DNA from: an uncultured Myxococcales bacterium
GTDB taxonomy: Bacteria > Myxococcota_A > Polyangia > Palsa-1104 > JAEUJZ01
Reading direction: 5' to 3'
NCBI GenBank assembly: GCA_937868485.1
Contig: CALMML010000112.1
Span: 4,161-68,160 of the forward strand
Length of the DNA stretch: 64,000 bases
Below are positions 1 to 61,733 of the stretch, piece by piece; the first letter of the stretch is position 1; each line of letters opens with the position of its first letter. A model generated the notes under the pieces. It was given only the letters and a program-made list of their open reading frames with translations, was not told the origin of the DNA and made no database searches. The translations under genes and the position numbers were made by a program.

Positions 1-806
1 CCGTTAATGGCCTTAATCAAGTCGGCGTTTTGCAGTCCAATCTTGGAAAAGATGGACGCTGTGCGGATATTGTAAAGCTTGAAGCCCGACGGCTTTCCGT
101 CCTTGATCCACGGAACAAATCGAGCACTCGTAGCCAGCGCGGTGGTATTGGCCAATACCTTGTCGATCAGGCTCTTATCGACTTCACAGTTGCTGCCCGT
201 GCAGCGAACGCCCTTTTCGACATCTTTTTCAATGCCGGTCGGGTCTGTCGTGCTCGGCTCTGCGGAAGCCACAGCGCTGGGCGGCGGCGGTGGCGGCTCT
301 TTGTCGCTGGTCAGGTACTCGATGCGCTTGCCCACGACCAAGTAGACACGGCCTTCGATGACCTGCGCGACGATGGCACCGCCTTGCGTCAGCTTGTCAC
401 CGCGACGGAAGATGCCCACTCGCTTGCGATCATCGCTGGTGTCACGAATGACCGCCATCGACCAGTCCCAGTCGCCCGGTGACACCATCGTCGCCACCAG
501 CGCCAGCGGCAGGCTGCTTCGCTGCGGCGTCTGATCGACCGGACCCTCTTCCTGCGCTTTTTCCGGCGTCAGCGAGATCGGCGCGCAGCTACTACAGAAG
601 ATGTTGCGACGAAGAATCGCCTCGATGTCTTTGGAACGGCTCTTTTCGGCGCTGGTCGCAACGCTGGCTTCCCGCCTCGGGAACGGTGGACCATCGCCTC
701 GCAAAAGGACCGAAACCGCCGAGTTTGCCGTCGTGCGACCGACCAGCGCAGCACAAACTCCGACGACAAGAAGGTTTACGACCCAGAAGTAGTTCTTGAC
801 TAGCAC
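1..806 (-). CDS. GspC-like type II secretion component (N-terminal TM helix, PDZ-like C-terminal region). 3' partial; the C-terminus runs off the window start.
   Basis: Minus-strand frame is open from a GTG at 806 (in-frame stop just upstream at 834-836) to position 1. Translation begins VKNYFWVVNLLVVGVCAALVG (TM) and ends ...GFKLYNIRTASIFSKIGLQNADLIKAING, a PDZ-like G-x-L...D-x-I-x-x-ING motif. It is absent from the ORF track only because it is truncated by the window edge. Confidence 0.45.
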   Translation of the reverse strand, partial: MLVKNYFWVVNLLVVGVCAALVGRTTANSAVSVLLRGDGPPFPRREASVATSAEKSRSKDIEAILRRNIFCSSCAPISLTPEKAQEEGPVDQTPQRSSLPLALVATMVSPGDWDWSMAVIRDTSDDRKRVGIFRRGDKLTQGGAIVAQVIEGRVYLVVGKRIEYLTSDKEPPPPPPSAVASAEPSTTDPTGIEKDVEKGVRCTGSNCEVDKSLIDKVLANTTALATSARFVPWIKDGKPSGFKLYNIRTASIFSKIGLQNADLIKAIN

Positions 807-1115
807 GGCCTTTGACTCCGCCTCAGCCCAGAGCTAATGCAAAGCCTGGGCCATCTTCGCTACGCAGACAGAACCGTCGGCTCGACGAGGACTTCGCCAC
901 ACCGGACCTTCGCTTCGCTCGCTGCGGCTGCCAGTTTGACACAGTGACCAGCCGACGCCGCCAGCTACTTTGCCAATTTGACAAGCGACCCAGACCAAGG
1001 TGTGCGGCCCCTGACCACTTCGACGACACCAGGGTCGGCCCGGCTGAGCGGCTCGCCGAAGCGGTCGCACCATCGCGCCGGAAATCGCGGTATGCTGAAC
1101 AAGTCCTAGGAAACC

Positions 1116-2060
1116 TTGATGTTGGTGTCGATCTCCGAGGGTGTGCTGCTGGAACGGGCTGTCGCGACCGGGCTGATTTCCGCAGTGGATGTTGCAGCGG
1201 CGCGCGCGGATCAAACGACGCTGACGAGGCCTCGCAAGTGGGGGCTGCTGCTCGATCGACTGATCGCATCCGGGAAGCTGAGCGACGAACAGGTTCGACA
1301 GCTGCACGACGACTTCATGCGCGGAACGCCAGGTGCGGCGGCGCTCGACCGAACGATGGACGGCGGGCTGGCGCGCACGATGGACGGCGGGCCGGTTCAG
1401 ACGAGCGACCACATCTTGGACCAGACGATCGACGGAGTGCTGGCGCAGACCATGGACAGCGGGCCCGATCGGGCCAAAGCAAGTCCGTCGGTGGCTCCGG
1501 TCAGTCCGTCGCCCAGCTTTCCCGCGCCACACTGGGACAAGTACGAGTTTTTGGAGCTGCTCGGACGAGGTGGTATGGGCGCTGTCTATCGGGCCCGCGA
1601 CCGACGGCTCGGTCGGCTGGTCGCGCTGAAGTTCATTCACGGCGACGATCCGGGGCTGATTCAGCGCTTTTTGCAGGAAGCCCGCTCGCAAGCACGGCTC
1701 GATCACCCGTTTATCTGCAAGGTCTTCGAAGTCGGCACCGTCGATAGCAAGCCCTACATCGCGATGGAGCTGGTCGACGGACGCACGCTCGACCGTCTGA
1801 GCCCGCAGCTTACGCTGAGCAACAAGCTCCAGATCGTCAAAGACACCGCCGAAGCGCTTCACCACGCCCACGAGCAAGGCATCGTCCACCGCGACATTAA
1901 GCCGTCTACCGATGTTCCCCTCGAACTGTCCGAAAAGACTTCCCTTTTCCGAAGAAGTATGCATGGGAAGTCAGCGCACGCGGGGAGGCCGGCAAGACGG
2001 ACGCCGCCCGCGCAATCGGACACGCTCCTTAGCCCGACTTTGGCGCAGACGGCTGCATAA
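1116..2060 (+). CDS. Hanks-type Ser/Thr protein kinase, N-terminal fragment. The gene is disrupted; the frame continues into inserted DNA after the catalytic loop. Likely a pseudogene piece.
   Basis: Glycine loop [14 protein letters not shown]-like ALKF, conserved E (QEARS), and HRDIKPS catalytic loop. After HRDIKPS the translation becomes non-kinase ([10 protein letters not shown]...). The missing continuation NIMIEQ...DFG...APE sits at 6452 onward. Confidence 0.8.
1902..1908. repeat. Left copy of a 7-bp direct repeat CCGTCTA at the kinase/insert junction (target-site-duplication-like).
   Basis: aagCCGTCTAccgat here versus cagCCGTCTAacatc at 6445-6451. Joining the flanks restores HRDIKPSNIMIEQRTDGGFRPVLMDFGLAR. 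Confidence 0.55.
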
Positions 2061-3936
2061 GACGCTGCAAGATCTGCTGTGCCGACTCTTCCGCTGACAG
2101 CGTCGTCGTATCAAGGCGCAGCTCGGGAGACTCCGGTGGCTCGTAGGGAGAGTCAATTCCCGTAAAGTTTTTGAGCTGCTTCGCACGCGCCTTTTTGTAA
2201 AGACCCTTGGGATCGCGACGCTCTGCTTCCGCAACCGGCGTGTCGACGAAGATCTCCAGGAACTCACCCGGCGCAAACAGACTTCGCGCCAGCGCACGCT
2301 CGGAACGGAATGGCGAGATAAACGCCACCAGCACAATCAGTCCGGCATCGACCATCAGCTTCGCAACTTCCGCCACACGGCGAATGTTTTCCACGCGATC
2401 CGCTGCGGTAAATCCCAGGTCTTTGCTGAGTCCGTGCCGGATGTTGTCTCCGTCGAGCAGATAGGTGTGTTTTCCCTGCGCGTAGAGCTTCTTTTCGAGC
2501 AGGTTCGCAATCGTCGACTTGCCCGCGCCCGATAGTCCCGTAAACCACAGCACGCACGGCGTCTGTCCCTTCTGCGCCGCGCGCGTCTCTTTGTTCAGAT
2601 CGAGCGCTTGCCAGTGAATGTTGTCCGCTCGTCGGAGAGCGAAGTGAACCAGACCCGCCGCCGCCGTTGTGTTGCTGATGCGATCGATCAGGATGAAGCC
2701 TCCGGTTTCCCGGTGTTCCTGATACGGATCAAACGTGATCGCGCGATCAATGCTCAGGTTACAGACTGCGATTTCGTTGAGTCCCAGCGTGCGCGCCACC
2801 ACCTGATCCAGCGTGTTTACATTGACCTTGTGACGAAGCGAAGTCACCGTCGCTGTAGCGAGCTGCGTTCCGATCTTGATGAGATAGGGACGACCGGGCA
2901 AAAGCGGCTCCTCTTGCATCCAGATCAGCGTGGCTTGCAGCTGATCCGCACAGGTCGCAGGATGCACGGGATCCACCAGCAGATCGCCTCTGCTCACATC
3001 GATTTCTTGTGTCAGGGAAACGGTCACAGACTGTCCCGCGCAGGCTTCCTTTTGCAATCCGTTTGCGCCCCAGATCGAAGCCACTTCCGCGATGATTCCC
3101 GACGGCATCACCCGCAGCTTGGCGCCTTCCTGAATCACTCCGCTAGCGACCAGTCCTGAAAAGCCACGGAAGTCCTGATGCGGACGATTCACCCACTGCA
3201 CCGGAAGTCGAAACGGCTGACTCTGCGGCGAATGGGACACATCCACCGTTTCCAAATGATCGAGCAGAGTCGGTCCCTCATAGTACGGAGTCTGGCTACT
3301 TCGCGCAGTAACATTGTCCCCTTTGAGCGCCGAGATAGGAATCGCCAGCACGTCGGACAGACTGATGCGCGCCGCAAACTCTGCGTACTCCTTTTGGATC
3401 GCAGAAAAGACCGCACGATCAAAGCCCACTGCATCCATCTTGTTGATCGCCAGCACCACTTTGCGAATGCCCAGCAGAGACACCAGATAGCTGTGTCTGC
3501 GCGTCTGGGTCAGCACTCCTTTGCGCGCATCAATGAGCAGAATCGCCAGCTCACAGTTGCTGGCCGCTGTCACCATGTTGCGCGTGTACTGCTCATGTCC
3601 TGGTGTATCAGCGACGATGAACTTGCGCTTGTCGGTTGAAAAGAAGCGATACGCAACATCGATCGTGATGCCTTGCTCGCGCTCTGCGGCCAGTCCATCA
3701 ACAAGCAGAGACAGATCCAGATCTTCGCTCTGTGGATTCCGTTTTTTCGACTCTGCTTCAATCGCCGCCAGATGATCCGCAAAGATCAGCTTCGATTCAT
3801 ACAGCAGCCTTCCGATCAGCGTGCTCTTGCCATCATCGACGCTGCCGCAGGTCATAAAGCGCAAAAGACTCTTTCCTTCATGCGCCTTGAGGTACTGCTC
3901 AATGTCAGCCGCGATCAGCTCGGACTTGTGAGACAT
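2029..3936 (-). CDS. cysNC: Bifunctional sulfate adenylyltransferase subunit 1 / adenylylsulfate kinase (CysN/CysC).
   Basis: N-terminal GTPase motifs [19 protein letters not shown]-terminal APS kinase P-loop GLSGAGKST. 635 aa. Confidence 0.9.
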
Positions 3937-4835
3937 TAGAAGTATCCTTCCTGCTTCTTTTTTTCCATCGAGGCCGCTTGATCGTGATCAATCGCGCGTC
4001 CTTGTCGCTCGGAAGTCGTCGTCAGCAGCATCTCTTGAATGATCGCGGGCAGCGTGTCTGCTTCGCTTTCAATCGCGCCGGTCAGCGGATAACAACCAAG
4101 CGTTCGGAAACGGACTTTCTTGCGCTGCGGAGTCTCTCCTTCCCGCAGCGGCAAGCGATCATCATCCACCATCAAGAGCATTCCGCCGCGCTCAACCACC
4201 GGACGCTCTGCCGCAAAGTAGAGCGGAACGATCGGAATCTGTTCCAGGTAGATGTACTGCCAGACATCCAGCTCGGTCCAGTTCGACAAAGGAAAGACAC
4301 GGATGCTCTCTCCCTTGCGCTTGCGGGTGTTGTAAAGCCGCCACAGCTCTGGACGCTGATTCTTCGGATCCCAGCGATGATCCGCACTGCGAAAGGAAAA
4401 CACGCGCTCTTTGGCTCGCGACTTTTCCTCATCGCGGCGCGCACCCCCAATCGCTGCATCAAAGCCATGCAGATCGAGCGCACGCTTGAGCGCCTGCGTC
4501 TTCATCACATCGGTATGCACCGACGATCCGTGCGTAAACGGACTGATGCCCGCATCCAGTCCTTCCTGATGGATGTAGACAATCAGGTTGAGCGATTCCT
4601 GCTGCGCAACCTGATCGCGAAAAGAGATCATCTCGCGAAACTTCCAGGTCGTATCCACATGCAGAAGCGGAAACGGAATCCGTCCCGGTGCAAACGCTTT
4701 CTTGGCCAGGTGCAGCATCACCGAGCTGTCCTTGCCAATCGAGTACATCATCACAGGACGCTCGCACTCTGCGACCACTTCTCGCAGGATGTGAATGCTC
4801 TCTGCTTCGAGCCGTTGTAGATGGGTCAGCGACAT
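3936..4835 (-). CDS. cysD: Sulfate adenylyltransferase subunit 2 (CysD).
   Basis: PAPS-reductase-like ATP pyrophosphatase fold. Motif [13 protein letters not shown] is typical CysD. It overlaps the cysNC start by 1 bp, consistent with an operon. Confidence 0.9.
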
Positions 4836-4970
4836 GCTCTCTCCGATTCGGTAGTGGTCCTACAACGCCCAGCCAAAAAAGTCAGCAGAGAACTTTTCGC
4901 GAAGACATACCGAGCCAATATTATGCATCTATTCTGCTTCATATTGTGACGTCCGTCGATCGCACAAGCG

Positions 4971-6311
4971 GTGTTCGGGAATCATCGCTGTGCGCACAGA
5001 CCTTGCGTTACAGGCTTGCGACTCTGCGCCGAATCCCGCATCGTCTTGCAGATGACGCGACACCTCGATCTTCGCCGCTTGGGACAGTGGATCCTGCTGG
5101 GTCACGTCGTGGGAGCGGTCTGTGGTGCGGGCTCTGCGCTGTTTTTGTGGCTGCTCGATCTGGCCACCAACACGCGCGTACAGCATCCGCAGATCGTGTA
5201 TGCACTGCCGCTTGCCGGCCTTGGGATCGGCTGGTTTTATCAGCGCTTTGGTCAGCCGGTGAAGGCTGGTAGTAACCTGGTGATTGATACGATCTCGGAC
5301 AACGGTCCAGAGCTGCCGCTGCGAATGGCCCCGATGGTGCTGTTCGGAACGGTCCTGACCCATCTGTTTGGCGGAAGCGCAGGACGCGAGGGAACTGCCG
5401 TGCAGCTTGGCGCGAGCTTGACCGACTTTCTGTCGCATCGGCTCCGTCTGTCTTCCGCACTACGGAGACAGCTTCTGTGCGCAGGAGTCGCGGGAGGCTT
5501 CGGCTCTGTGTTTGGGACTCCGATGGCAGGAATGATCTTCGGACTCGAGTTCGTGGTGCTGGGACGCATCGAGTATGAAGCGCTGGTTCCGGCTTTGATT
5601 GCCGCTCTCATCGGGGATCTGGTGACGCGCTCGCTCGGAATCGTTCACACCAGCTATCCGACGCCAGCAGCGCTGCCGCTGTCACCGCTGCTGCTTGTAA
5701 AGTGGCTGCTGTTTGCCATCGCGACTGCGCTCACCACCACGCTGTTTATTGAGCTGGTTCATGCACTGAAAAAGCAAGGCGAGCGCTTCCTTCCGCAGCT
5801 CTCTGTTCGCATGATGCTGGGTGGTCTGTCTGTGCTCGCGCTGTGGAAGCTGTTCGGAAGCGACGACTACTTGGGCTTGGGCGTTCCCACCATCGTGCGC
5901 GCGTTTACCGATCCGACCCTTCCGTCCTATTCCTTTGCGGCCAAGCTTCTGTTTACTGCGCTCACGATCGGAGCGGGCTTTTTGGGCGGGGAAGTGACTC
6001 CGCTCTTTTTCATTGGAGCCACGCTAGGGAATGTCCTTGCGCAGTTCCTAGGAATCCCGCTGTCCCTGGGCGCTGGCGTCGGTCTGGCTGCGGTGTTTGC
6101 TGCGGCATCGAACACTCCGCTGGCGCTGTCTGTGATGGCGGTGGAGCTGCTGGGAGCCCACGTCTTGCCGCACGTTGTGATTGTCTGTGTGCTGTCCTAT
6201 CTGCTGTGCGGACACCGCAGCATCTACCAAGCGCAGCGACTCCTTCGCACCAAGTCGGGATCAGAGCTTGCGCAGATGACCACGCTTCGTCACGACTCCG
6301 GTTCCACGTAA
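4971..6311 (+). CDS. ClC family chloride channel / H+-Cl- exchanger.
   Basis: GSAGREGT, GxFxP-like and GGEVTPLFFIGATLG motifs. Polytopic membrane protein. The start could instead be the internal M at about 5052 (MTRHLDLRRLGQW...). An AT-rich divergent promoter region (4836-4970) is shared with cysD. Confidence 0.8.
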   Translation: MFGNHRCAHRPCVTGLRLCAESRIVLQMTRHLDLRRLGQWILLGHVVGAVCGAGSALFLWLLDLATNTRVQHPQIVYALPLAGLGIGWFYQRFGQPVKAGSNLVIDTISDNGPELPLRMAPMVLFGTVLTHLFGGSAGREGTAVQLGASLTDFLSHRLRLSSALRRQLLCAGVAGGFGSVFGTPMAGMIFGLEFVVLGRIEYEALVPALIAALIGDLVTRSLGIVHTSYPTPAALPLSPLLLVKWLLFAIATALTTTLFIELVHALKKQGERFLPQLSVRMMLGGLSVLALWKLFGSDDYLGLGVPTIVRAFTDPTLPSYSFAAKLLFTALTIGAGFLGGEVTPLFFIGATLGNVLAQFLGIPLSLGAGVGLAAVFAAASNTPLALSVMAVELLGAHVLPHVVIVCVLSYLLCGHRSIYQAQRLLRTKSGSELAQMTTLRHDSGST

Positions 6312-6326
6312 ACACAACCAGATTCC

Positions 6327-6356
6327 CAGCGCTGCGCAGGCTCCTACGCAGCGCTG
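6327..6356 (+). terminator. GC-rich hairpin just downstream of the ClC gene (cagcgctgcg-N10-cgcagcgctg).
   Basis: Perfect 10-bp inverted repeat with a 10-nt loop, 16 bp after the stop codon. No U-tract follows, which is common in high-GC genomes. Confidence 0.5.
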
Positions 6357-6444
6357 CACGCCTTCCCTCCCACTTCCGAACAGAGTCTCTGCATCCCGAT
6401 ACTCCGACGGAAACGATGCAAAGATTGATCGACCAAGGAAGCAG

Positions 6445-6451
6445 CCGTCTA
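6445..6451. repeat. Right copy of the 7-bp direct repeat CCGTCTA.
   Basis: See 1902-1908. Confidence 0.55.
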
Positions 6452-6456
6452 ACATC

Positions 6457-9165
6457 ATGATCGAGCAGCGCACGGACGGCGGCTTTCGTCCGGTGCTGAT
6501 GGACTTCGGTCTGGCGCGCGAAAGTGGCGACTCCCATGGACTCACAGAGTCCGGTGCGGTGATGGGAACGCCTGCGTATATGTCGCCGGAGCAAGCACGC
6601 GGAGAAGCACGACGGCTCGATCGACGCAGCGATGTCTACAGCTTGGGTGCGACGCTGTATGAAGTGCTGGTTGGACGGCCTCCGTTTGAAGATCAGACCG
6701 TCATCAACATCCTGCTCAAGGTGATGAACGATCCGCCGACTCCACTGCGGAGCCTCGATCCGCAGATCCCGGAAGCGGTGGAGCTGGTGGTCAGCAAGTG
6801 TCTGAACAAGGAACCCGAGCAGCGCTATCAGACGGCCAAGGCGCTCGCAGAGGATCTCGGTCGGTATCTGTCCACAGAGCGCGTGCAGGCCAAGCGGCTG
6901 AGCTATACGTATCGGCTGACCTACTGGGCGCGTCAGAATCGAACGCTGGCAGCACTCGCAGCGATCCTGTGTGTGACCGTGATCAGCGCGCTAGGAATCG
7001 GCATCCGAGCGCGGATCATCGCGGTGCAAAAGGAACGTCGCGCCAAAGAGCAAGCCGAGCTTTCCCGTCGGATTGGACAGTCTGTTCAAGATCTAGAGTG
7101 GGTCGCACGCACTGCGTATCTGCTGCCGCTTCATGACACGTCCTATGAACAGAAGCTCGTGCGGGATCGCATGACAGAGATCCAGCAAGAGCTGCAAGGA
7201 CACAGCGACAGTGGGCCTCGGCTGGAAGCGTATGCGCGTGGACGTGGACTGTTGGCGCTGCACGACTTTGGCGGCGCACAAACAGAGCTAGCGCGTGCAG
7301 AGCGGCTGGGACATGTCGATCTCGAGCTGGACTATGCACTCGGTCGCGCGCTCGGTGAGCTGTATTCCCAAGCGCTCGATGATGCACGCAAGAGCGGTGA
7401 CAAGAGCTTCTTTGAAAAGCGCAAGGCAGAGCTGGATGCAGAGCTGCTCCGTCCGGCGCTGCGTTACCTACAGCGGAGTCGCGCGCTGCGCAGTGTGTCG
7501 TCTCTGTATGTCGAAGGACTGATTGCCTACTTTCAGCAGGACTTCGACCTGGCCCTGACCCGCGCAGAGCAGGCCCAGAAGCTGGCCCCGTGGCTGTATG
7601 AAGCGGTGAAGCTGGGCGGCGATGTCTTGTTGGAGCGCGCTCGGGCCGAGCGAGATCGCGGCGAGCACGATCGCGCAGCGCAGCACTTTGCAGAGTCCGT
7701 CGCGCGCTACAAGCAAGCCGCAGAGATTGGCCGCAGCGATCACAGCGTCCACGAAGCACTGGCCGAAGCCTACATCCGCTGGGAAGAGCTGGACTACTTC
7801 CGAGGCAAAAACCCCGAGCCCTATCTCCAAGAAGCCCTGCGCGCTGCCGACAAGGCCCTTGTCGCTGCCCCCAAAGCCTCCCACGGCCACACCAAAAAGG
7901 CGTTTGCCTATTATTTCTACGGCGAATATTCAAAACAGCATTTATCACCACAACAAACACGAATGCTCAGAAAGAACCAGATCGAGGAAGGCATTAGTGC
8001 GACCATTCAACATCACGATGACCCATATGCCCACGAAATCACTGGCCTTGGTTTTTGCAGAGCAGCAGAAGTAGACTCAGAAAACAGCAAATCTCACATA
8101 AAAAATGCAGTCTTTTATCTTGATAAATCAGTCAGAATAAACCAGCGATTCCCATGGGCCTACAACGACTATGCCATTGCGCTGCTGGCAGAGTCCAAGC
8201 TCCAGCAGCAGTCCAATCAAAGCCCGATTGACACGATCCAGCGTGCGGTTGCCCTGGCCGAGCAAGCGCTGACGATTGACCCAGGATACATCTATGCGAT
8301 GAATACCATCACTGCAGCCAGCCTGCGTGCCAGCACCTGGCTGATCGAGCATGGCCAAGATCCCAGCGTCTGGATTCAAAAAGGGATTCAAGCCGCATCG
8401 CAAGTCCTAGCGATAAACAAGAACTTTCCACTTGCACATGGAAACATTGGCACGATCTTGATGAACAAGTCCTTTTACGAATTACTGGCTGGAATCAATC
8501 TATCTGGCAGCAAAACTGCTTGCATTTCATCCTTTCGTCAAATGATCAACATCTCAGGATCCTCAGCGGATGTACAAAGCTACATTGCCATCCTTCATCA
8601 CTTTGAAGCGCTACAAATCTTACAAAATAAAAACAACCCGTCTGCAACCATTGACGAAGGACTCAAAGCCATCGAGTCATGCACAAACACGATCAACAAA
8701 GATCCATACTGCATAGATGCACAGGCTCGTCTTTTATCAGCAAAATCAGCATGGCTCATTGAAAACAAGCAAGATTTTAAGACAACGCTAGAGCAATCAT
8801 ACCGACTTGCACAGACAGCCGCTCAGAGTCTGGGCGACGAACCGGATGCTCTCCTTTCCCTGGGAGAAATTGCTCTCTTGCTGATAACGGAAGGTTCAAT
8901 ACCGCAGGCACGACGACTCGCTGTCATCCAGCAAGGCATTGGCGGACTAGACAGAGCGCTGGCGAATCAGCTGGGCTGGCCGCGTGCCTTGGTTGTCAAA
9001 GGGGCGCTGCTGCGCGTTCGGGCGCAGGGTGAGCGGGGCATTCAGCGACAATCGACGCTGCGGATGGCGAGGGATGCACTGAAGGAAGGGCTGGCGGGGA
9101 ATCCGCTGCTTAGGCGACAGTACGGCACGACGCTGGCAGAGCTGGAGCAACAGCTCGCACCGTAA
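6457..9165 (+). CDS. Ser/Thr kinase C-lobe (DFG through APE to subdomain XI) fused to a ~700 aa TPR-like helical repeat domain. This is the continuation of the disrupted kinase at 1116.
   Basis: MIEQRTDGGFRPVLMDFGLAR, GTPAYMSPEQ and DVYSLGATLYEVLVGRPPF motifs. A predicted TM helix follows (LAALAAILCVTVISALGIGI), then long helical repeats. The first in-frame ATG is at 6457. Upstream in frame reads KQPSNI, matching the missing HRDIKPSNI. Confidence 0.8.
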   Translation: MIEQRTDGGFRPVLMDFGLARESGDSHGLTESGAVMGTPAYMSPEQARGEARRLDRRSDVYSLGATLYEVLVGRPPFEDQTVINILLKVMNDPPTPLRSLDPQIPEAVELVVSKCLNKEPEQRYQTAKALAEDLGRYLSTERVQAKRLSYTYRLTYWARQNRTLAALAAILCVTVISALGIGIRARIIAVQKERRAKEQAELSRRIGQSVQDLEWVARTAYLLPLHDTSYEQKLVRDRMTEIQQELQGHSDSGPRLEAYARGRGLLALHDFGGAQTELARAERLGHVDLELDYALGRALGELYSQALDDARKSGDKSFFEKRKAELDAELLRPALRYLQRSRALRSVSSLYVEGLIAYFQQDFDLALTRAEQAQKLAPWLYEAVKLGGDVLLERARAERDRGEHDRAAQHFAESVARYKQAAEIGRSDHSVHEALAEAYIRWEELDYFRGKNPEPYLQEALRAADKALVAAPKASHGHTKKAFAYYFYGEYSKQHLSPQQTRMLRKNQIEEGISATIQHHDDPYAHEITGLGFCRAAEVDSENSKSHIKNAVFYLDKSVRINQRFPWAYNDYAIALLAESKLQQQSNQSPIDTIQRAVALAEQALTIDPGYIYAMNTITAASLRASTWLIEHGQDPSVWIQKGIQAASQVLAINKNFPLAHGNIGTILMNKSFYELLAGINLSGSKTACISSFRQMINISGSSADVQSYIAILHHFEALQILQNKNNPSATIDEGLKAIESCTNTINKDPYCIDAQARLLSAKSAWLIENKQDFKTTLEQSYRLAQTAAQSLGDEPDALLSLGEIALLLITEGSIPQARRLAVIQQGIGGLDRALANQLGWPRALVVKGALLRVRAQGERGIQRQSTLRMARDALKEGLAGNPLLRRQYGTTLAELEQQLAP

Positions 9166-9192
9166 CGAAGCGATGGCGAACAGGAAAGGACG

Positions 9193-10281
9193 CTAGTTCG
9201 CGACGCACTCACCAGCGGCGCTGGTCAGGGTGCAGGGACGAGCGCTGAGCAGCACGCCAGAGTGGCTGCTGGTGCACGCCACAAAGCGACTCGGGCACTG
9301 CGTCTTGATGATGGCCAGGCGCTGTAGCAGGGTGGTGTTGGTGCTGCGGTACTCGCTTTCGTTGAAGCAGGACGCACCGTTTTCGTTCCAGAACGCCTCC
9401 ATCGTGGCGAGGGTCTGGTTCGTATCGGCGTGAATGCCGACGCGGTCTTTGACGTGAATCGTGGTCACGCCCTGCGCGGCATCGTAGCCAGTGGTCAGCG
9501 GGCTTCCTGATCCACAGACATCATCGCGCTTCATCCGCGTACACGCCTGGTGAACCGACGCCATCGAGACCGGCTTGCCCGTCACTTCGTCCGGTCGCGT
9601 TCCCCATGGACCGTAGCCCCACTCGACGCAGCCGCCGATGGCATCCTGCGAGCAGCCGAGCGTGATGGCGTTGGCATCGCTCACCTTGCTACCGCTCAGG
9701 TTCCAGCGAACGCCGCCAATCGGGATCATCGTCTCGTAGACCGTCTGGGTGGTGGTCTTGGTGACCAGTACCTCACGCGGGCACAGACCAACCGACGTGG
9801 TCGCATCGTCGGCATGGGCCGACACCCACTGTGTGGTGTAGCGGCTAAACGATCCATCGGTTGCGGTCGAAGCTGCGGTGATCCGCAGCGTTCCCGCCAG
9901 TGGCGCGGCCACCGTCAAGACCAGCTCGACCGAGGCATCTTCTGCATCGGCACCAATCACCAGAAACGATCCCTGCGCAGTGGTCAGGCTCTGTGGCGCA
10001 ATCGCCTGTCCGTTGTAGGCAATCGACGTCACCTGCGCATAGGTCAGGCTGCTGCCCGTGCTGACAAACCACGCGCCGCCCGAAAAGTACAGGCCGGTCA
10101 CCGTCTGACCTTCCAGCGTCGCCGAAAACAGCTGGTTGTAGTTGGTGCTGGACCACCCGTCTCCGCGAATCGCCTGCTGGACGGCATCCCGACTGGTGTC
10201 TTCCGGCTCGACCCCACAGCCACTTCCGATCACGCTGGCCAGACACAGAACTGAAAACATCTTGTGAAGCGACATCGTCAT
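9193..10281 (-). CDS. Hypothetical secreted lipoprotein.
   Basis: Start MTMSLHKMFSVLCLASVIGSGC gives a signal peptide plus lipobox Cys. AGGAG sits immediately upstream of the ATG. No recognisable domain. The ORF-track start at 10494 lacks an RBS, so I trimmed it to 10281. Confidence 0.55.
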   Translation of the reverse strand: MTMSLHKMFSVLCLASVIGSGCGVEPEDTSRDAVQQAIRGDGWSSTNYNQLFSATLEGQTVTGLYFSGGAWFVSTGSSLTYAQVTSIAYNGQAIAPQSLTTAQGSFLVIGADAEDASVELVLTVAAPLAGTLRITAASTATDGSFSRYTTQWVSAHADDATTSVGLCPREVLVTKTTTQTVYETMIPIGGVRWNLSGSKVSDANAITLGCSQDAIGGCVEWGYGPWGTRPDEVTGKPVSMASVHQACTRMKRDDVCGSGSPLTTGYDAAQGVTTIHVKDRVGIHADTNQTLATMEAFWNENGASCFNESEYRSTNTTLLQRLAIIKTQCPSRFVACTSSHSGVLLSARPCTLTSAAGECVAN

Positions 10282-10625
10282 CTCCTGGTTGAACTTCTCT
10301 ACGGGCGATACATCCCAAAATGCGTGCCAACAGAATCTGTAGTTTCGTCGGAGATGGGCTTGCGCAACACAGCAGAGCGCGCCGAACTCCCAACCGATAG
10401 GAATCACAAAGGAATCGAAGTCCTTCGCGGAGCAGACAGACTCCCCATCACGCACGCCTAGACAGCCCAGCTTGTGACAGTGGCACTGACACAACCGCTG
10501 TCACATGTGTCACCCCGTGCCAGACTCCCAAGCCCGGACTCCTGGGTACAGACGCCCCACGCGGGACGCCCTTCTGCAGACTCCGCAGTCCACCCCGGTA
10601 CGGACTCCCAAGCGATGCTGCACGC

Positions 10626-12014
10626 TTAGGGCTCTTCGTCTTCATCCAGAACATCGGCGCGACTGCCACTGACCTGTACGCCGTACTTGGTCAGCAAGCG
10701 CTTAAGCTGCGTCCGATGCAGTCCCAAAAGCCGCGCGGATGCACTGATGTTGCCCTCACTTCGCCGCAGCGCTTCCTCGATTTGATTCCGATCGGGCTGT
10801 TCTTTGCGTGAAATCGGCGGATGAAGCAGCACCGCGCACGGCGGCGTGGACTCCTCACTGCGCTCGATGGGCTGACCGGCGTGTGCGCTCAGGTGCGAAG
10901 GCTCCAGACGACTCGACTCTCTTCCCAAGGCCTGATGCGCGGCGGCGCGAACTTCCGCCAGCAGCTCTCGGACATTGCCCGGCCAGGCACGCAAAAGACA
11001 CAGCTCGACAAACAGCGCATGCACGGACAGCGCTTGAGGAATCGCGCGCAGCCCCAGCTGAATCAGCCACGGAATCTCTTCGGGACGCTGACGAAGAAGA
11101 GGCACCGTCACACTCGGACTGCCAATGCGAAAATAGAGATCTTCCCGAAAGCGCGAGCTGCTTACTTCTTGCCGCAGGTTGCGATGGGAAGCGGTACAGA
11201 TGGACAGGTTCACCAGCCGAGGACGCAGCGCGCCCATCGCCAGCACTTCTTTGGTTTCAATGACGCGAAGGAGCTTGGCTTGGACCGCCAAATCCAGCTC
11301 TGCCACTTCATCCAGAAACAGTGTTCCACCGTCGGCAGACTGAATCAGTCCTTCGCTGTCTGCAACCGCTCCTGAAAACGCGCCACGGCGCGCCCCAAAC
11401 AGCAGTCGCTCTGCCACACCTGGAGCAATCGTCGCACAGTTTATCGCAACAAACGGACCGCTGCCGCGCTGACCAGCGGAGTGAAACGCGCGCGCGATTC
11501 CTTCTTTGCCGCTGCCACTGTCTCCGGTGATGTGTAGCGTCCTTCCGTACTGTGCCGCACGCGCCGCTTGTTGCAGCGCTTCCTGAAGCAGCGGACCGAC
11601 GACGCGATCCTCTGTCACCCGCACGCCCAGCTTTTGAAACGGACGAAGATCCGCGCAAAACAGAAACAGCGAGTCCCCCGTTCGCAGCACCTTCGCCACC
11701 GCGCTCGCGATCGATCCAGTGACGCGCACACCATCGACATAACAGCCGTTTTGACTGCCCAGATCGCTCACCCGAAAGCGCTCTCCGTCAAACGAGACAC
11801 TTGCGTGCTTGCGCGACATCCGAGGATCGCTCGGAAACAGCGACTTTCCATCGCCGCGTCCCACTTCCAGCGCATTCCCTGTCATCGGAATCGCCGTGCA
11901 GCGCGGTGTCCCTTGCGCAAAGACCAGTAGCAGACCTGGAACCGGAAGCCCGCTGCCTTCGCCTCCCGCTGTACTGCTTACGGAGTCGCGCAAGGTCACA
12001 GGTTGATTCGCCAT
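10626..12014 (-). CDS. Sigma-54-dependent Fis-family transcriptional activator with an N-terminal FHA domain.
   Basis: FHA core (GR...DP..SR.HA....G..F.V.DLGS.NG..V). AAA+ sigma-54 interaction domain with Walker A GDSGSGKE and a GAFTGA-like GAFSGA loop. C-terminal Fis HTH (ARLLGLHRTQLKRLL). Confidence 0.85.
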   Translation of the reverse strand: MANQPVTLRDSVSSTAGGEGSGLPVPGLLLVFAQGTPRCTAIPMTGNALEVGRGDGKSLFPSDPRMSRKHASVSFDGERFRVSDLGSQNGCYVDGVRVTGSIASAVAKVLRTGDSLFLFCADLRPFQKLGVRVTEDRVVGPLLQEALQQAARAAQYGRTLHITGDSGSGKEGIARAFHSAGQRGSGPFVAINCATIAPGVAERLLFGARRGAFSGAVADSEGLIQSADGGTLFLDEVAELDLAVQAKLLRVIETKEVLAMGALRPRLVNLSICTASHRNLRQEVSSSRFREDLYFRIGSPSVTVPLLRQRPEEIPWLIQLGLRAIPQALSVHALFVELCLLRAWPGNVRELLAEVRAAAHQALGRESSRLEPSHLSAHAGQPIERSEESTPPCAVLLHPPISRKEQPDRNQIEEALRRSEGNISASARLLGLHRTQLKRLLTKYGVQVSGSRADVLDEDEEP

Positions 12015-59672: not shown

Positions 59673-60635
59673 CTACTCGTGCTCTTCGCCGCACAGCTTG
59701 AGCAGCAGCCCGTCGAGCTGATCGAGCGACAGATACTGCACTTCGATGATGCCGCTCTGCGCGGTCTTCTGACGCAGATGAACCCGCGTACCGAGCGCTC
59801 GCTGGAGCCGCTCTTCCACATCGCGAACCGACGACGAAGCCTTCTTGTCTTCCTTTGGCGGCTTGTCTTTCGCTTGCGGCTTCTGCGCGCGCCGGACCAG
59901 ATCCTCGGTCTGTCGCACCGACAGCGCCTTTTTGATCACTTGGTCGGCGTTTTCCTCGATGACGTGGGCATCTTCGAGGCCGAGCAGCGCCCGCGCGTGA
60001 CCCATCGCCAGCTGTCCGGTCGCCACTTGATCGCGGACTTTGCCGGGCAGCTTGAGCAGACGCAGCGAGTTCGCCACCGTCGCACGCTCTCGACCGACAC
60101 GCCGAGCCAGCTCTTCCTGGGTGTAGCCGAACTCGTCGGACAGACGACGATAGGCTTCGGCCTCTTCGATCGGGTTCAGATCTTCGCGCTGAAGGTTTTC
60201 GACGAGCGCCAGCTCAAACGCCTGGGCCGCGCTGACGTCTTTGACCACCACCGGAACGTCTTTGAGCCCGGCTTTCTGCGACGCACGCCAGCGACGCTCA
60301 CCGGCAATCAGGACGAAGCTGCCTTCCCCGAGCTTGTCTTCGGGCGTCCGCATCCGCACAACCAGCGGCTGGACCAGACCTTGGGCACGAATCGACGCGG
60401 CCAGCTCTTCCAGACGCTGCTCGTCGAAGCGCTGCCGAGGGTTATCGACCGACGGCGCAATCTCTTCGATCGGACAGAAGAAGAAGTCTCGACGCGCCAC
60501 CTGGGGCTTGGCAGAGACAGACGGGCTGGCTGCGGTGCCGACATCCTCGACGCCGACCGGCGCTTGGTGAACGGCAGCGGGAAGGTTCGGAATGAGAGCG
60601 CCCAGACCGCGACCGAGTGCTTTGCGCTTGTCCAT
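59673..60635 (-). CDS. parB: Chromosome partitioning protein ParB/Spo0J.
   Basis: ALGRGLGALIP N-terminus, ParB box, HTH. 320 aa. Directly downstream of parA. Confidence 0.9.
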   Translation of the reverse strand: MDKRKALGRGLGALIPNLPAAVHQAPVGVEDVGTAASPSVSAKPQVARRDFFFCPIEEIAPSVDNPRQRFDEQRLEELAASIRAQGLVQPLVVRMRTPEDKLGEGSFVLIAGERRWRASQKAGLKDVPVVVKDVSAAQAFELALVENLQREDLNPIEEAEAYRRLSDEFGYTQEELARRVGRERATVANSLRLLKLPGKVRDQVATGQLAMGHARALLGLEDAHVIEENADQVIKKALSVRQTEDLVRRAQKPQAKDKPPKEDKKASSSVRDVEERLQRALGTRVHLRQKTAQSGIIEVQYLSLDQLDGLLLKLCGEEHE

Positions 60636-61445
60636 TTACGGCGATCCTTGGACGCTCGGCTGCGACGGAGCGGACAGCGCGGCGTTCTTGTGCGAGAGGA
60701 CTTCTTTGGCGAGCTGACCGTACGCATACGAGCCACGCGACGCCGGGTCATACTTCAAAATCGGCAGTCCGTGAGACGGCGCTTCCGACAGGCGAATGTT
60801 ACGCGGCACCAGCGTCTTGTAGACCTTGGGACCAAAGTGGCCGCGCACCTCGCTTTCGACCTGCTGCATCAGGCTCGTGCGGGTATCGACCATCGTCAGC
60901 AAGATGCCTTCCAGCTCTAGGCTTGGGTTCCACACTGCACGAACCTTATCGAGCGTCGAGAGCAGATACGACAGACCTTCCAGCGCAAAGTATTCGCACT
61001 GCATCGGCACGAGCACACCATCGGCAGCCACCAGCGCGTTCAGCGTCAAGAGCCCAAGCGACGGCGGACAGTCGATCAGGATGTAGTCGTAGCGATTGCG
61101 GACCTCAGCGAGCGCGTCGTGAAGCTGCCACTCGCGCCGCTCGGTGCCGACCAGCTCGACCTCGGCACCGGCCAAGTCAGCCGTCGAGGGAACGAGCCAC
61201 AGCGTCGATAGCACCGTAAGCTGCGTCAGCTCTCGCAAGGACACCTTATCAATCAGGCTGTGATAGACGCCTTGCTCGACGGAACCGCGCACAAAGCCCA
61301 GCCCCGAGGTGGCGTTGCCCTGCGGGTCGAAGTCCACGACCAAGACCTTCTCGCCCTCTTCGGCAAGAGCGGCAGCCAAGTTCACGGTGGTGGTGGTCTT
61401 GCCCACTCCACCTTTTTGGTTGGCAACTGCGATGACTCGACCCAT
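60636..61445 (-). CDS. parA: Chromosome partitioning ATPase ParA/Soj.
   Basis: Deviant Walker A VANQKGGVGKTTT. Start MGRVIAV is at the internal ATG 61445. The ORF-track start at 61523 adds a non-conserved extension. Confidence 0.9.
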   Translation of the reverse strand: MGRVIAVANQKGGVGKTTTTVNLAAALAEEGEKVLVVDFDPQGNATSGLGFVRGSVEQGVYHSLIDKVSLRELTQLTVLSTLWLVPSTADLAGAEVELVGTERREWQLHDALAEVRNRYDYILIDCPPSLGLLTLNALVAADGVLVPMQCEYFALEGLSYLLSTLDKVRAVWNPSLELEGILLTMVDTRTSLMQQVESEVRGHFGPKVYKTLVPRNIRLSEAPSHGLPILKYDPASRGSYAYGQLAKEVLSHKNAALSAPSQPSVQGSP

Positions 61446-61733
61446 GGATTCGACTCTCTTATGGCCTCTAGAACCGTTAGACAAAGCGGGCCACAAGATA
61501 GCGACGAGCCGCTGCGCTTTCAAAAAAATCGCCCGAGATAAATTTGACCCGTCGGAAAAGCGGCAATACCAGAAGGTTTATGAGACTTGCCAAGCTTGCG
61601 GCCCGTCCTCACCATCCGGCAAAGAGCGCTGATGCGGAAATCGATGCGATGCTCGATGCGCTGTTCGCCACCGAGCTTCACCCGACCTGGCAAAACCAGG
61701 CGGTGAAGGAAGATCCAAGCGAAGAAACAGCGC

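Follow-up and report, generated by a model that had tools for sequence, protein, structure and literature searches.

A kinase gene of uncultured Polyangia split within its catalytic loop by a repeat-flanked insert without its own recombinase, at what may be a recurrent integration site

How does a protein kinase gene come to be cut in two, inside the catalytic loop of its kinase domain, by genes for sulfate activation and a chloride channel? The question is raised by a 64,000-nt stretch of contig CALMML010000112.1 from an uncultured Myxococcales bacterium (assembly GCA_937868485.1), referred to here as the window, in which a serine/threonine kinase gene is interrupted by a block carrying cysNC, cysD, and a ClC-type channel gene. 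A first-pass annotation, made from the letters of the window, had proposed that a once-contiguous kinase gene was split by a repeat-flanked insert lacking a recombinase of its own, possibly a nonautonomous cassette. This proposal is supported by the present work: an empty allele of the gene is found in a relative (locus L001), and no recombinase was detected in the insert. With moderate confidence, we regard the block as an old, vertically inherited, integrase-less islet resembling a cis-mobilizable element (CIME), which sits at an intragenic site used repeatedly for integration and is moved by a recombinase acting in trans.

The two halves of the gene read as one protein. The open reading frame (ORF) at positions 1116-2060 (plus strand) matches the first part of the Pfam Pkinase profile as far as HRDIKPS and then leaves the kinase fold; beyond position 1908, it consists of a 50-aa tail read from insert DNA. 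The ORF at 6457-9165 (plus strand) matches the remainder of the profile and continues into a long TPR-like region, the order being catalytic Asn (NIMIEQ...), DFG, APE, a hydrophobic segment (ILCVTVISALGIGI), and the TPR-like region. Its first start codon is the ATG at 6457, at the NIM codon, and the break point of the kinase lies between HRDIKPS and NIMIEQ. That the upstream ORF is canonical up to HRDIKPS and that the downstream ORF continues it had both been read from the sequence before, and the profile matches bear this out (Table 1). The two halves could instead have matched different paralogs, a prospect raised at the time; both are colinear with one contiguous protein. A search with the rejoined protein retrieved P0001 (1166 aa) at full coverage. 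The corresponding locus, L001, has an intact kinase gene between the same neighbors as in the window: a 325-aa gene upstream and, downstream, an ADYC-domain gene, an FHA/sigma-54 activator gene, and HxlR and SDR genes. The uninterrupted, syntenic ortholog that had been suggested as a check on the split is thus in hand.

Alignment to L001 also sets the limits of the insert. Window positions 1-1908 align to L001 159-2052 and positions 6443-8396 to L001 2044-3997, and the two alignments overlap by exactly 9 nt. This 9-mer, AGCCGTCTA, is single-copy in the empty site (L001 2044-2052) and is found at both junctions of the window: at the left (...CAC CGC GAC ATT AAG CCG TCT A|CC GAT GTT) and at the right (...GGAAGCAGCCGTCTA|AC ATC ATG ATC GAG, with the upstream context GGAAGC AGCCGTCTA). 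The chance of a 9-nt identity at two independently defined breakpoints is ~4e-6. The direct repeat had been noticed earlier as CCGTCTA; its presence at both junctions holds, and its length of 7 nt does not, as CCGTCTA is the inner part of a 9-nt repeat. In silico removal of 1909-6451 (4543 bp) gives HRDIKPSNIMIEQ and a restored ORF of 1168 codons, in line with the seamless gene of ~1170 aa that deletion of this interval had been expected to yield, and the rejoined empty-site junction sequence is CGCGACATTAAGCCGTCTAACATCATGATCGAGC. A search of the insert termini for inverted repeats, another check that had been recommended, found none that pair the two termini.

Table 1. Features of the split kinase locus in window coordinates, with synonymous divergence (dS) and the ratio of nonsynonymous to synonymous divergence (dN/dS) between lineages A and C
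Feature	Position	Strand	Remarks	dS	dN/dS
Kinase N-half (N-terminal domain, N-lobe, catalytic loop to HRDIKPS)	1116-1908	+	Pfam Pkinase 1-127; colinear with intact P0001/L001	0.48 (N-half domain)	0.06
Left core repeat copy AGCCGTCTA, 9 nt	1900-1908				
Insert proper, 4534 bp (4543 bp including one repeat copy)	1909-6442		Absent from L001		
Left-end motif, inverted repeat GACTTCCC-N20-GGGAAGTC (ACTTCCC-N20-GGGAAGT)	1937-1972	+	29 nt inside left junction		
cysNC (sulfate adenylyltransferase GTPase subunit fused to adenosine 5'-phosphosulfate [APS] kinase)	2029-3936	-	Pfam GTP_EFTU and APS_kinase	0.47	0.10
cysD (sulfate adenylyltransferase small subunit)	3936-4835	-	Pfam PAPS_reduct	0.33	0.05
ClC-type voltage-gated chloride channel homolog	5052-6311	+	Pfam Voltage_CLC; ATG at 5052 matches the L002 gene call	0.55	0.15
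Right-end motifs: TTCCCTCCCACTTCC (6363-6377) and CCGACGG (6404-6410)	6363-6410	+	40-90 nt inside right junction		
Right core repeat copy AGCCGTCTA, 9 nt	6443-6451				
Kinase C-half	6451-9165	+	Pfam Pkinase 139-260; 98.6% nt identity to intact L001 from 6443 onward	0.45 (first 487 codons)	0.15
ADYC gene (flank)				0.49	
Sigma-54 activator gene (flank)				0.42	

The interrupted allele is not peculiar to one assembly. The cysNC-cysD-ClC insert is present in three lineages and in no fewer than six independent assemblies; the lineages are A (that of the window), B' (L026/L027), and C (L003-L006 and L011, a contig of a metagenome-assembled genome [MAG]). Insert identity to the window is 99.4% in L002, ~87% in L004/L011, and ~93% in L026. 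In lineage A, the N-half protein is encoded on ~25 contigs from JGI, ENA, NCBI, Logan, and MGnify. The targeted kinase belongs to uncultured myxobacteria of wastewater and soil metagenomes. An assembly or binning chimera that joined unrelated DNA inside the kinase gene, one of the options first listed, can therefore be dismissed: the same structure is found in L002, L003-L006, L011, and L026/L027, the same junctions recur in independent ENA, JGI, NCBI, and Logan assemblies with sequence divergence among them, and a 9-nt repeat is far below the k-mer length of assemblers. The first-pass annotation had also held that relatives interrupted alike, with both halves conserved, would speak against an insertion. 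Such relatives do exist, but the insertion reading stands because three clades show an interleaving of intact and split alleles.

The age of the insert was gauged by comparing the window, which represents lineage A, with L004/L003 of lineage C (Table 1). Since the dS of the cargo genes (0.33-0.55) is close to that of the flanking genes (0.42-0.49), the insert is older than the A/C split; it has co-diverged with its surroundings and is real and old, not recent. The GC content that had been proposed for comparison differs only mildly, at 0.577 for the insert versus 0.62 for the window. Both kinase halves are under purifying selection while split, unlike a dead gene, and the comparison of A with C shows no stop and no frameshift in 1166 kinase codons. 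Lineage B, in which intact alleles occur, has a C-half 98.6 to 99% identical to that of lineage A, so selection on the halves could be indirect, and recombination with intact alleles could help to keep them clean. Part of the C-half is a mosaic, hypervariable segment (window 7751-8800; GC content of 0.48 versus 0.62 for the window). Alignment to L002, which is 99.4% identical elsewhere, is lost at 7913-8131, and alignment to L001 is lost at 8397-8995; protein variants of the segment are common to clades in patchwork fashion. No template repeat of a diversity-generating retroelement (DGR) for this region was found in the window.

Insertion at this point extends well beyond the lineages that share the cysNC-cysD-ClC cargo. 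Clades were delineated from identity matrices (ABC, D, and E, plus L010 and L025), and the same codon is struck in at least five clades. The C-half-only proteins P0018 and P0020 and loci L008/L009, L010, and L012 begin at ...Q|PSNIM..., and L022 is cut within ~27 nt of this point. On the other side of the break, an N-half-only search returned many short proteins, 43 to 100% identical, that stop right after HRD(I/V/L)KPS(N). What lies between the halves varies. Upstream of the C-half are, in L010, an ICMT-like gene; in L008, genes for a 474-aa unknown protein, an NHL protein, and a sigma-54 activator; and in L012, an intact paralogous kinase gene and an ISL3 transposase gene. The cargo of L026 (B') comprises a fatty acid (FA) desaturase gene and a TerB-like gene in addition to cysNC-cysD-ClC; that of L028/L029 (clade D) includes an IstB fragment, a sulfotransferase gene, and type VI secretion system (T6SS) genes; L030 has unrelated genes, and L037 has a truncated histidine kinase gene and a response regulator gene. 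Sizes range from 4.5 kb up to tens of kb (clade D, with the N-half on L028/L029 and the C-half on L008), and no cargo proteins common to inserts of different clades were found. The additional desaturase/TerB-like module of the B' insert is placed exactly at the left core, which looks like accretion. An 8-mer, GCAGCCGT, was considered as an internal att-like site of this insert; it is suggestive, but its alignment to the insert ends is not significant. In L037 (10826-11498), the N-half is fused directly to a histidine-kinase ATPase domain, of which the 3' end is present; the response regulator gene comes next, and the conserved motif of the left end of the insert has been lost.

That left-end motif belongs to a set of sequences by which the insert ends can be recognized. 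The left-end inverted repeat occurs once in the window, where no copy is expected by chance, and it recurs at the left end of the same insert in L002, L004, and L011 and of an insert with different cargo in L028/L029. Its arms are conserved, its loop is variable, and its fold is weak. The right ends of A, B', C, L008, L010, and L012 carry TTCCCNCNNACTTCC, followed ~25 to 35 nt downstream by a TCGACGG-like heptamer and then by CAGCC(G/C)TCNAAC. The right 15-mer is present in one copy in the window and in one copy per split locus in 11 loci, always 60 to 90 nt 5' of the junction, including L008, L010, and L012, whose cargo is unrelated. Across the window and ~0.5 Mb of fetched loci, the left and right motifs are found at insert ends only. 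The two ends are not inverse copies of each other; in end alignments, they consist of different, directly oriented motifs. Because arms are conserved, loops vary, and the palindrome folds no better than shuffled sequence (8-bp arms GACTTCCC/GGGAAGTC; z = 0), the motifs suggest protein-binding repeats and not an RNA or terminator structure. A terminator hairpin had previously been assigned to the block; the candidate at 1937-1972 was rejected, as it scores z = 0 against shuffles and was not picked up by a terminator scan, and these positions hold the conserved insert-end motif instead. No known RNA families were found in window positions 1-10000.

In several clades, the likeness between insert and target extends past the core. 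Of the 12 nt beside it, 8 match the target in L008, 7 in L010, 11 in L022, 8 in L028, and 9 in L037, compared with a background mean of ~3.2; L008, for instance, reads LIRDTQPSN versus IIHRDIKPSN, and L028 reads NITTVEK versus NIMVERT. The ends may derive from attL and attR sites: they have the core repeat and clade-spanning motifs specific to insert ends, and target-like arms are significant in other clades but not in the lineage of the window. The ends were also considered as decayed long segments of the kinase gene. This was rejected, as unanchored alignments are not significant (z < 2), and only ~12 nt are target-like, in some clades only.

Turnover among strains is seen in three clades, where intact and split alleles interleave: B (L001 versus L026/L027), D (L013 versus L028/L029 and L008), and E (L023/L024 versus L012/L022). 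Flank identity among these clades is only 72 to 80%. Within B, the empty locus L001 and the occupied locus L026 are 99.6% identical in the left flank and 99.7% identical in the right flank, with 11 mismatches that are evenly spread and never within 120 nt of the junction, and what separates them is 7137 bp of inserted DNA with the same 9-mer at its borders. Gain or loss here was precise and recent, with no foreign tract imported. Elsewhere, the right ends do not follow the relationships of their hosts: the flanks of L012 and L022 are 95.9% identical, but their right ends are unrelated, at ~53% (the baseline of this gapped alignment), whereas the flanks of L008 and L012 are 80% identical and their right ends 67%. 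This disagreement argues for several integration events by related elements and not for one ancient accident. The identity switch at the junction of the window against L001 (85% on the left, 98.6% on the right) was considered as a junction-specific joint and rejected, since the high-identity tract continues into the ClC gene against L026, as in an ordinary mosaic.

What could have moved the inserts was sought in the DNA itself. Pfam detects only cysNC, cysD, and ClC domains in the insert, in agreement with the earlier gene assignments, and no transposase or integrase domain. The additional B' module holds FA_desaturase and TerB-like genes and no recombinase, and none was found in the 64-kb window by tblastn queries with the tyrosine integrase of L008 and the serine recombinase of L007 or by Pfam analysis of 30 further ORFs. 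Because no recombinase was found in the inserts of A, B', or C, beside 12 insert ends, or in the window, each gain or precise loss would depend on an enzyme encoded elsewhere and supplied in trans. The integration site would be the catalytic-loop codons K-P-S|N of a kinase-TPR gene conserved in Polyangia/Myxococcota, into which a circular element would insert in Campbell fashion via the 9-nt core AGCCGTCTA to leave attL-like and attR-like junctions. This topology of site-specific recombination is suggested by a core that is single in the empty site and double in the occupied one, by motifs inside both junctions, and by the target-like arms of some clades. A core of 9 nt is too short for RecA-dependent exchange and fits the 6- to 8-nt overlap regions of tyrosine recombinases. 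The trans-acting enzyme would most plausibly be a tyrosine recombinase that binds repeated ACTTCC-type motifs as putative arm sites; two such motifs lie in direct orientation on the right and one direct and one inverted on the left, and they look like arm-type sites. The recombinase, its type, the direction of each gain or loss, and any activity of the split kinase are matters of inference.

Several observations weigh against a CIME-like islet moved in trans. No autonomous relative with an integrase adjoining the end was found among five left and seven right ends. The attP form of the junction was not found in viral contigs, where searches with the paired motifs of the right end and with CGACCAAGGAAGCAGCCGTCTACCGATGTTCCCCTCGAAC, the circular junction that is predicted, gave chance matches or none, and no internal att-like site was found between the two B' modules. 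In the lineage of the window, the ends show no significant likeness to the target outside the 9-nt core (5/12 and 4/12), and the cargo is housekeeping-like and not typical of islands. Homologous recombination is active around the locus (A-B mosaic of 85 to 100% identity), so some of the presence/absence polymorphism could spread without a site-specific enzyme. The lack of an enzyme and the mosaicism would be accounted for by a one-off illegitimate insertion of chromosomal DNA through 9-nt microhomology at a break, with alleles later shuffled by homologous recombination and with end sequences that evolved later, as a terminator of the N-half and a promoter or leader of the C-half. In its favor are the failure to find a recombinase in the insert or the window, the housekeeping type of the cargo, the clear recombination mosaicism around the locus, the co-divergence of insert and flanks in A, B', and C, and the N-half of L037, which lies directly against a truncated histidine-kinase gene, as capture of random DNA might leave it. 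We nevertheless consider such an accident unlikely: flanks at 72 to 80% identity are too diverged for easy homologous exchange to explain interleaved alleles in three clades, the L001/L026 flanks contain no imported tract, right ends are discordant with host relatedness, and the same end motifs surround entirely different cargo.

Transposition would explain the repeat differently. Single-strand elements of the HUH/Y1 type, such as IS200/IS605-like elements or palindrome-associated transposable elements (PATE), have subterminal hairpins at both ends in direct orientation, rely on a transposase in trans, and pick their target with a short guide; site-specific insertion, the lack of inverted terminal repeats and of an internal enzyme, the palindrome 29 nt inside the left end, and a related motif in the same orientation near the right end (an intact palindrome in L010) would all suit them. 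These elements make no 9-nt duplication, however, and carry cargo of at most ~2 kb, whereas a 9-nt duplication is present here and cargo reaches tens of kb in clade D; the hairpin of the window is no better than shuffles, the right end is without such a hairpin, and the arms are conserved without covariation, which makes an origin of this kind very improbable. Slightly harder still to credit is a nonautonomous DDE transposon (IS4/Tn5/Tn10-like) that left a 9-bp target-site duplication by staggered cutting. The perfect 9-nt direct repeat that is single in the empty site is what it predicts, but the ends are not inverse copies and form no terminal inverted repeats, the insert has no transposase, and reuse of the same codon in at least five clades is unlike these transposons. 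A functional split kinase, in which separate proteins reassemble or have separate roles, is compatible with any of these origins and would explain purifying selection on both halves. It accords with dN/dS values of 0.06 (N-half) and 0.15 (C-half) over a dS of ~0.45 spent split, with 1166 codons free of stops and frameshifts, with stable and widespread N-half-only genes (P0131 is identical on 24 contigs), and with the ATG at the NIM codon that opens the C-half. We doubt it all the same, as the cut parts the catalytic Asp/Lys (HRDIK) from the catalytic Asn inside one loop, selection may act via intact alleles with recombination or excision, and the C-half is truncated further in L007. A break within the catalytic loop of a kinase is a poor place for fragment complementation.

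The CIME-like islet moved in trans remains our preferred reading, and it allows a bolder, tentative version. An islet family in Polyangia may split the kinase gene reversibly, with a host or distant recombinase inserting and precisely excising the DNA as a DNA-level on/off switch, either heritable at the population level or developmental. This would explain both the purifying selection on the halves and the alternating alleles in near-identical strains; we regard it as possible, though on the whole rather improbable.

The cargo and surroundings of the insert add further detail. The three cargo genes lie on both strands with their own divergent intergenic region. Sulfur activation recurs in two clades: cysNC-cysD, which make 3'-phosphoadenosine 5'-phosphosulfate (PAPS), are carried in A, B', and C, and a PAPS-type sulfotransferase gene is carried in D (L028/L029 11839-13131 compared with window 2029-4835). 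This likeness of cargo may be a coincidence. The ADYC-domain gene and then the FHA and sigma-54 activator gene follow 3' of the kinase gene in the window (9193-12014) and in all syntenic loci. A phospho-dependent partnership between the FHA activator and the kinase is plausible, and the split may alter sigma-54-dependent regulation. Because the window also contains parB and parA (59673-61523) as well as genes for prolyl-tRNA synthetase (ProRS), a BamB-like protein, and a UvrD-like helicase, the kinase locus appears to lie in the core, and probably origin-proximal, chromosome and not in an island region.

Kinase genes in these bacteria are also cut at other points. In L007 (1-9980), a clade D relative, the same kinase gene has a second and different insert ~110 nt downstream, at GTPAYMSPE, with an 11-nt overlap; this element of ~9.8 kb has a large serine recombinase gene at its edge and a DGR (RVT_1, bAvd, and an FGE-sulfatase target). 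In L008 (1440-3473), a different kinase paralog is cut at IIHR|, with the end of a tyrosine integrase gene 70 nt away, and the N-half-only proteins P0132, P0134, and P0165 likewise end at HR|. The L008 integrase beside this cut and the ends of these three proteins point to a second class of element whose target in the catalytic-loop DNA of kinases lies five codons upstream. P0131 (279 aa; L031-L036), an N-half-only kinase that is more distant, ends at HRDLKPS|DERAA... and is identical on at least 24 contigs from many samples; no C-half was found within 10 kb of it, and its gene neighborhood is a different one, encoding a thiolase, OmpA, and a 1709-aa kinase-AAA-GAF protein. There is a warning here for annotation: in Polyangia MAGs, many "short kinases" of ~250 to 350 aa and 900-aa kinase-TPR proteins represent the two parts of a single split gene.

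Among known systems, integron cassettes (attC, an adjacent intI/attI, and single promoterless ORFs) are a poor match for an insert with three genes on both strands and no integrase found in the window. The heptamer GTCTAAC resembles an inverse core site by eye only, and resemblance of the target to dif or attC, also judged by eye, is not convincing. Tn5, Tn10, and IS4 share the 9-nt target duplication and differ in their inverted repeats and transposase, and here one codon is strictly reused. The gonococcal genetic island and the pdif modules of Acinetobacter exemplify, respectively, integrative mobile elements exploiting Xer (IMEX) and dif/pdif modules. In these systems, cargo without a recombinase of its own lies between short sites and is moved by the chromosomal tyrosine recombinase XerC/XerD (PMC5790767). 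The proposed logic of recombinase-less cargo with an enzyme in trans is the same; the target here, GACATTA-AGCCGTC-TAACATC, is by eye unlike the canonical dif site and sits in a protein-coding catalytic loop.

Decay offers a further parallel. CIMEs are decayed integrative and conjugative elements (ICEs) or integrative and mobilizable elements (IMEs) which retain attL and attR and have lost their genes for integration and transfer (PMC5704250). The insert of the window is like them in its conserved ends, its core repeat, and its lack of integration or transfer genes. It is unlike them in that no autonomous ICE or IME was found at this site, in a search limited to 12 insert ends and to viral contigs, and in that the target lies inside an ORF, which is disrupted, and not at the 3' end of a tRNA or housekeeping gene.

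In function, the nearest analogy is with gene-intervening elements, such as skin in sigK, SPbeta in spsM, and gin in gerE, and those of nifD, fdxN, and hupL, which are excised by site-specific recombination in Bacillus and heterocystous cyanobacteria. Of these, gin is reported to recombine within a 9-bp consensus and to have no phage genes (PMC5595907; PMC4191935). In common with these elements, the kinase gene has a multi-kb insert in its coding sequence, bounded by a short direct repeat, whose precise removal restores the ORF. Membership of the group fails on one feature, as the precisely removed gene interrupters known from endospore formers and heterocystous cyanobacteria carry their own recombinase and these inserts, in the cases examined, carry none. 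The myxobacterial host, the kinase catalytic-loop target, and the metabolic cargo set the locus apart as well, and literature searches found no precedent for a gene-intervening insert in Myxococcota. No motif of this eukaryotic-like kinase is more conserved than the one targeted, and the ends are all that inserts with unrelated cargo have in common. Should the recombinase prove to be encoded by the host, the locus would represent a new intragenic docking site for cargo DNA and possibly a DNA-level switch of a signaling pathway.

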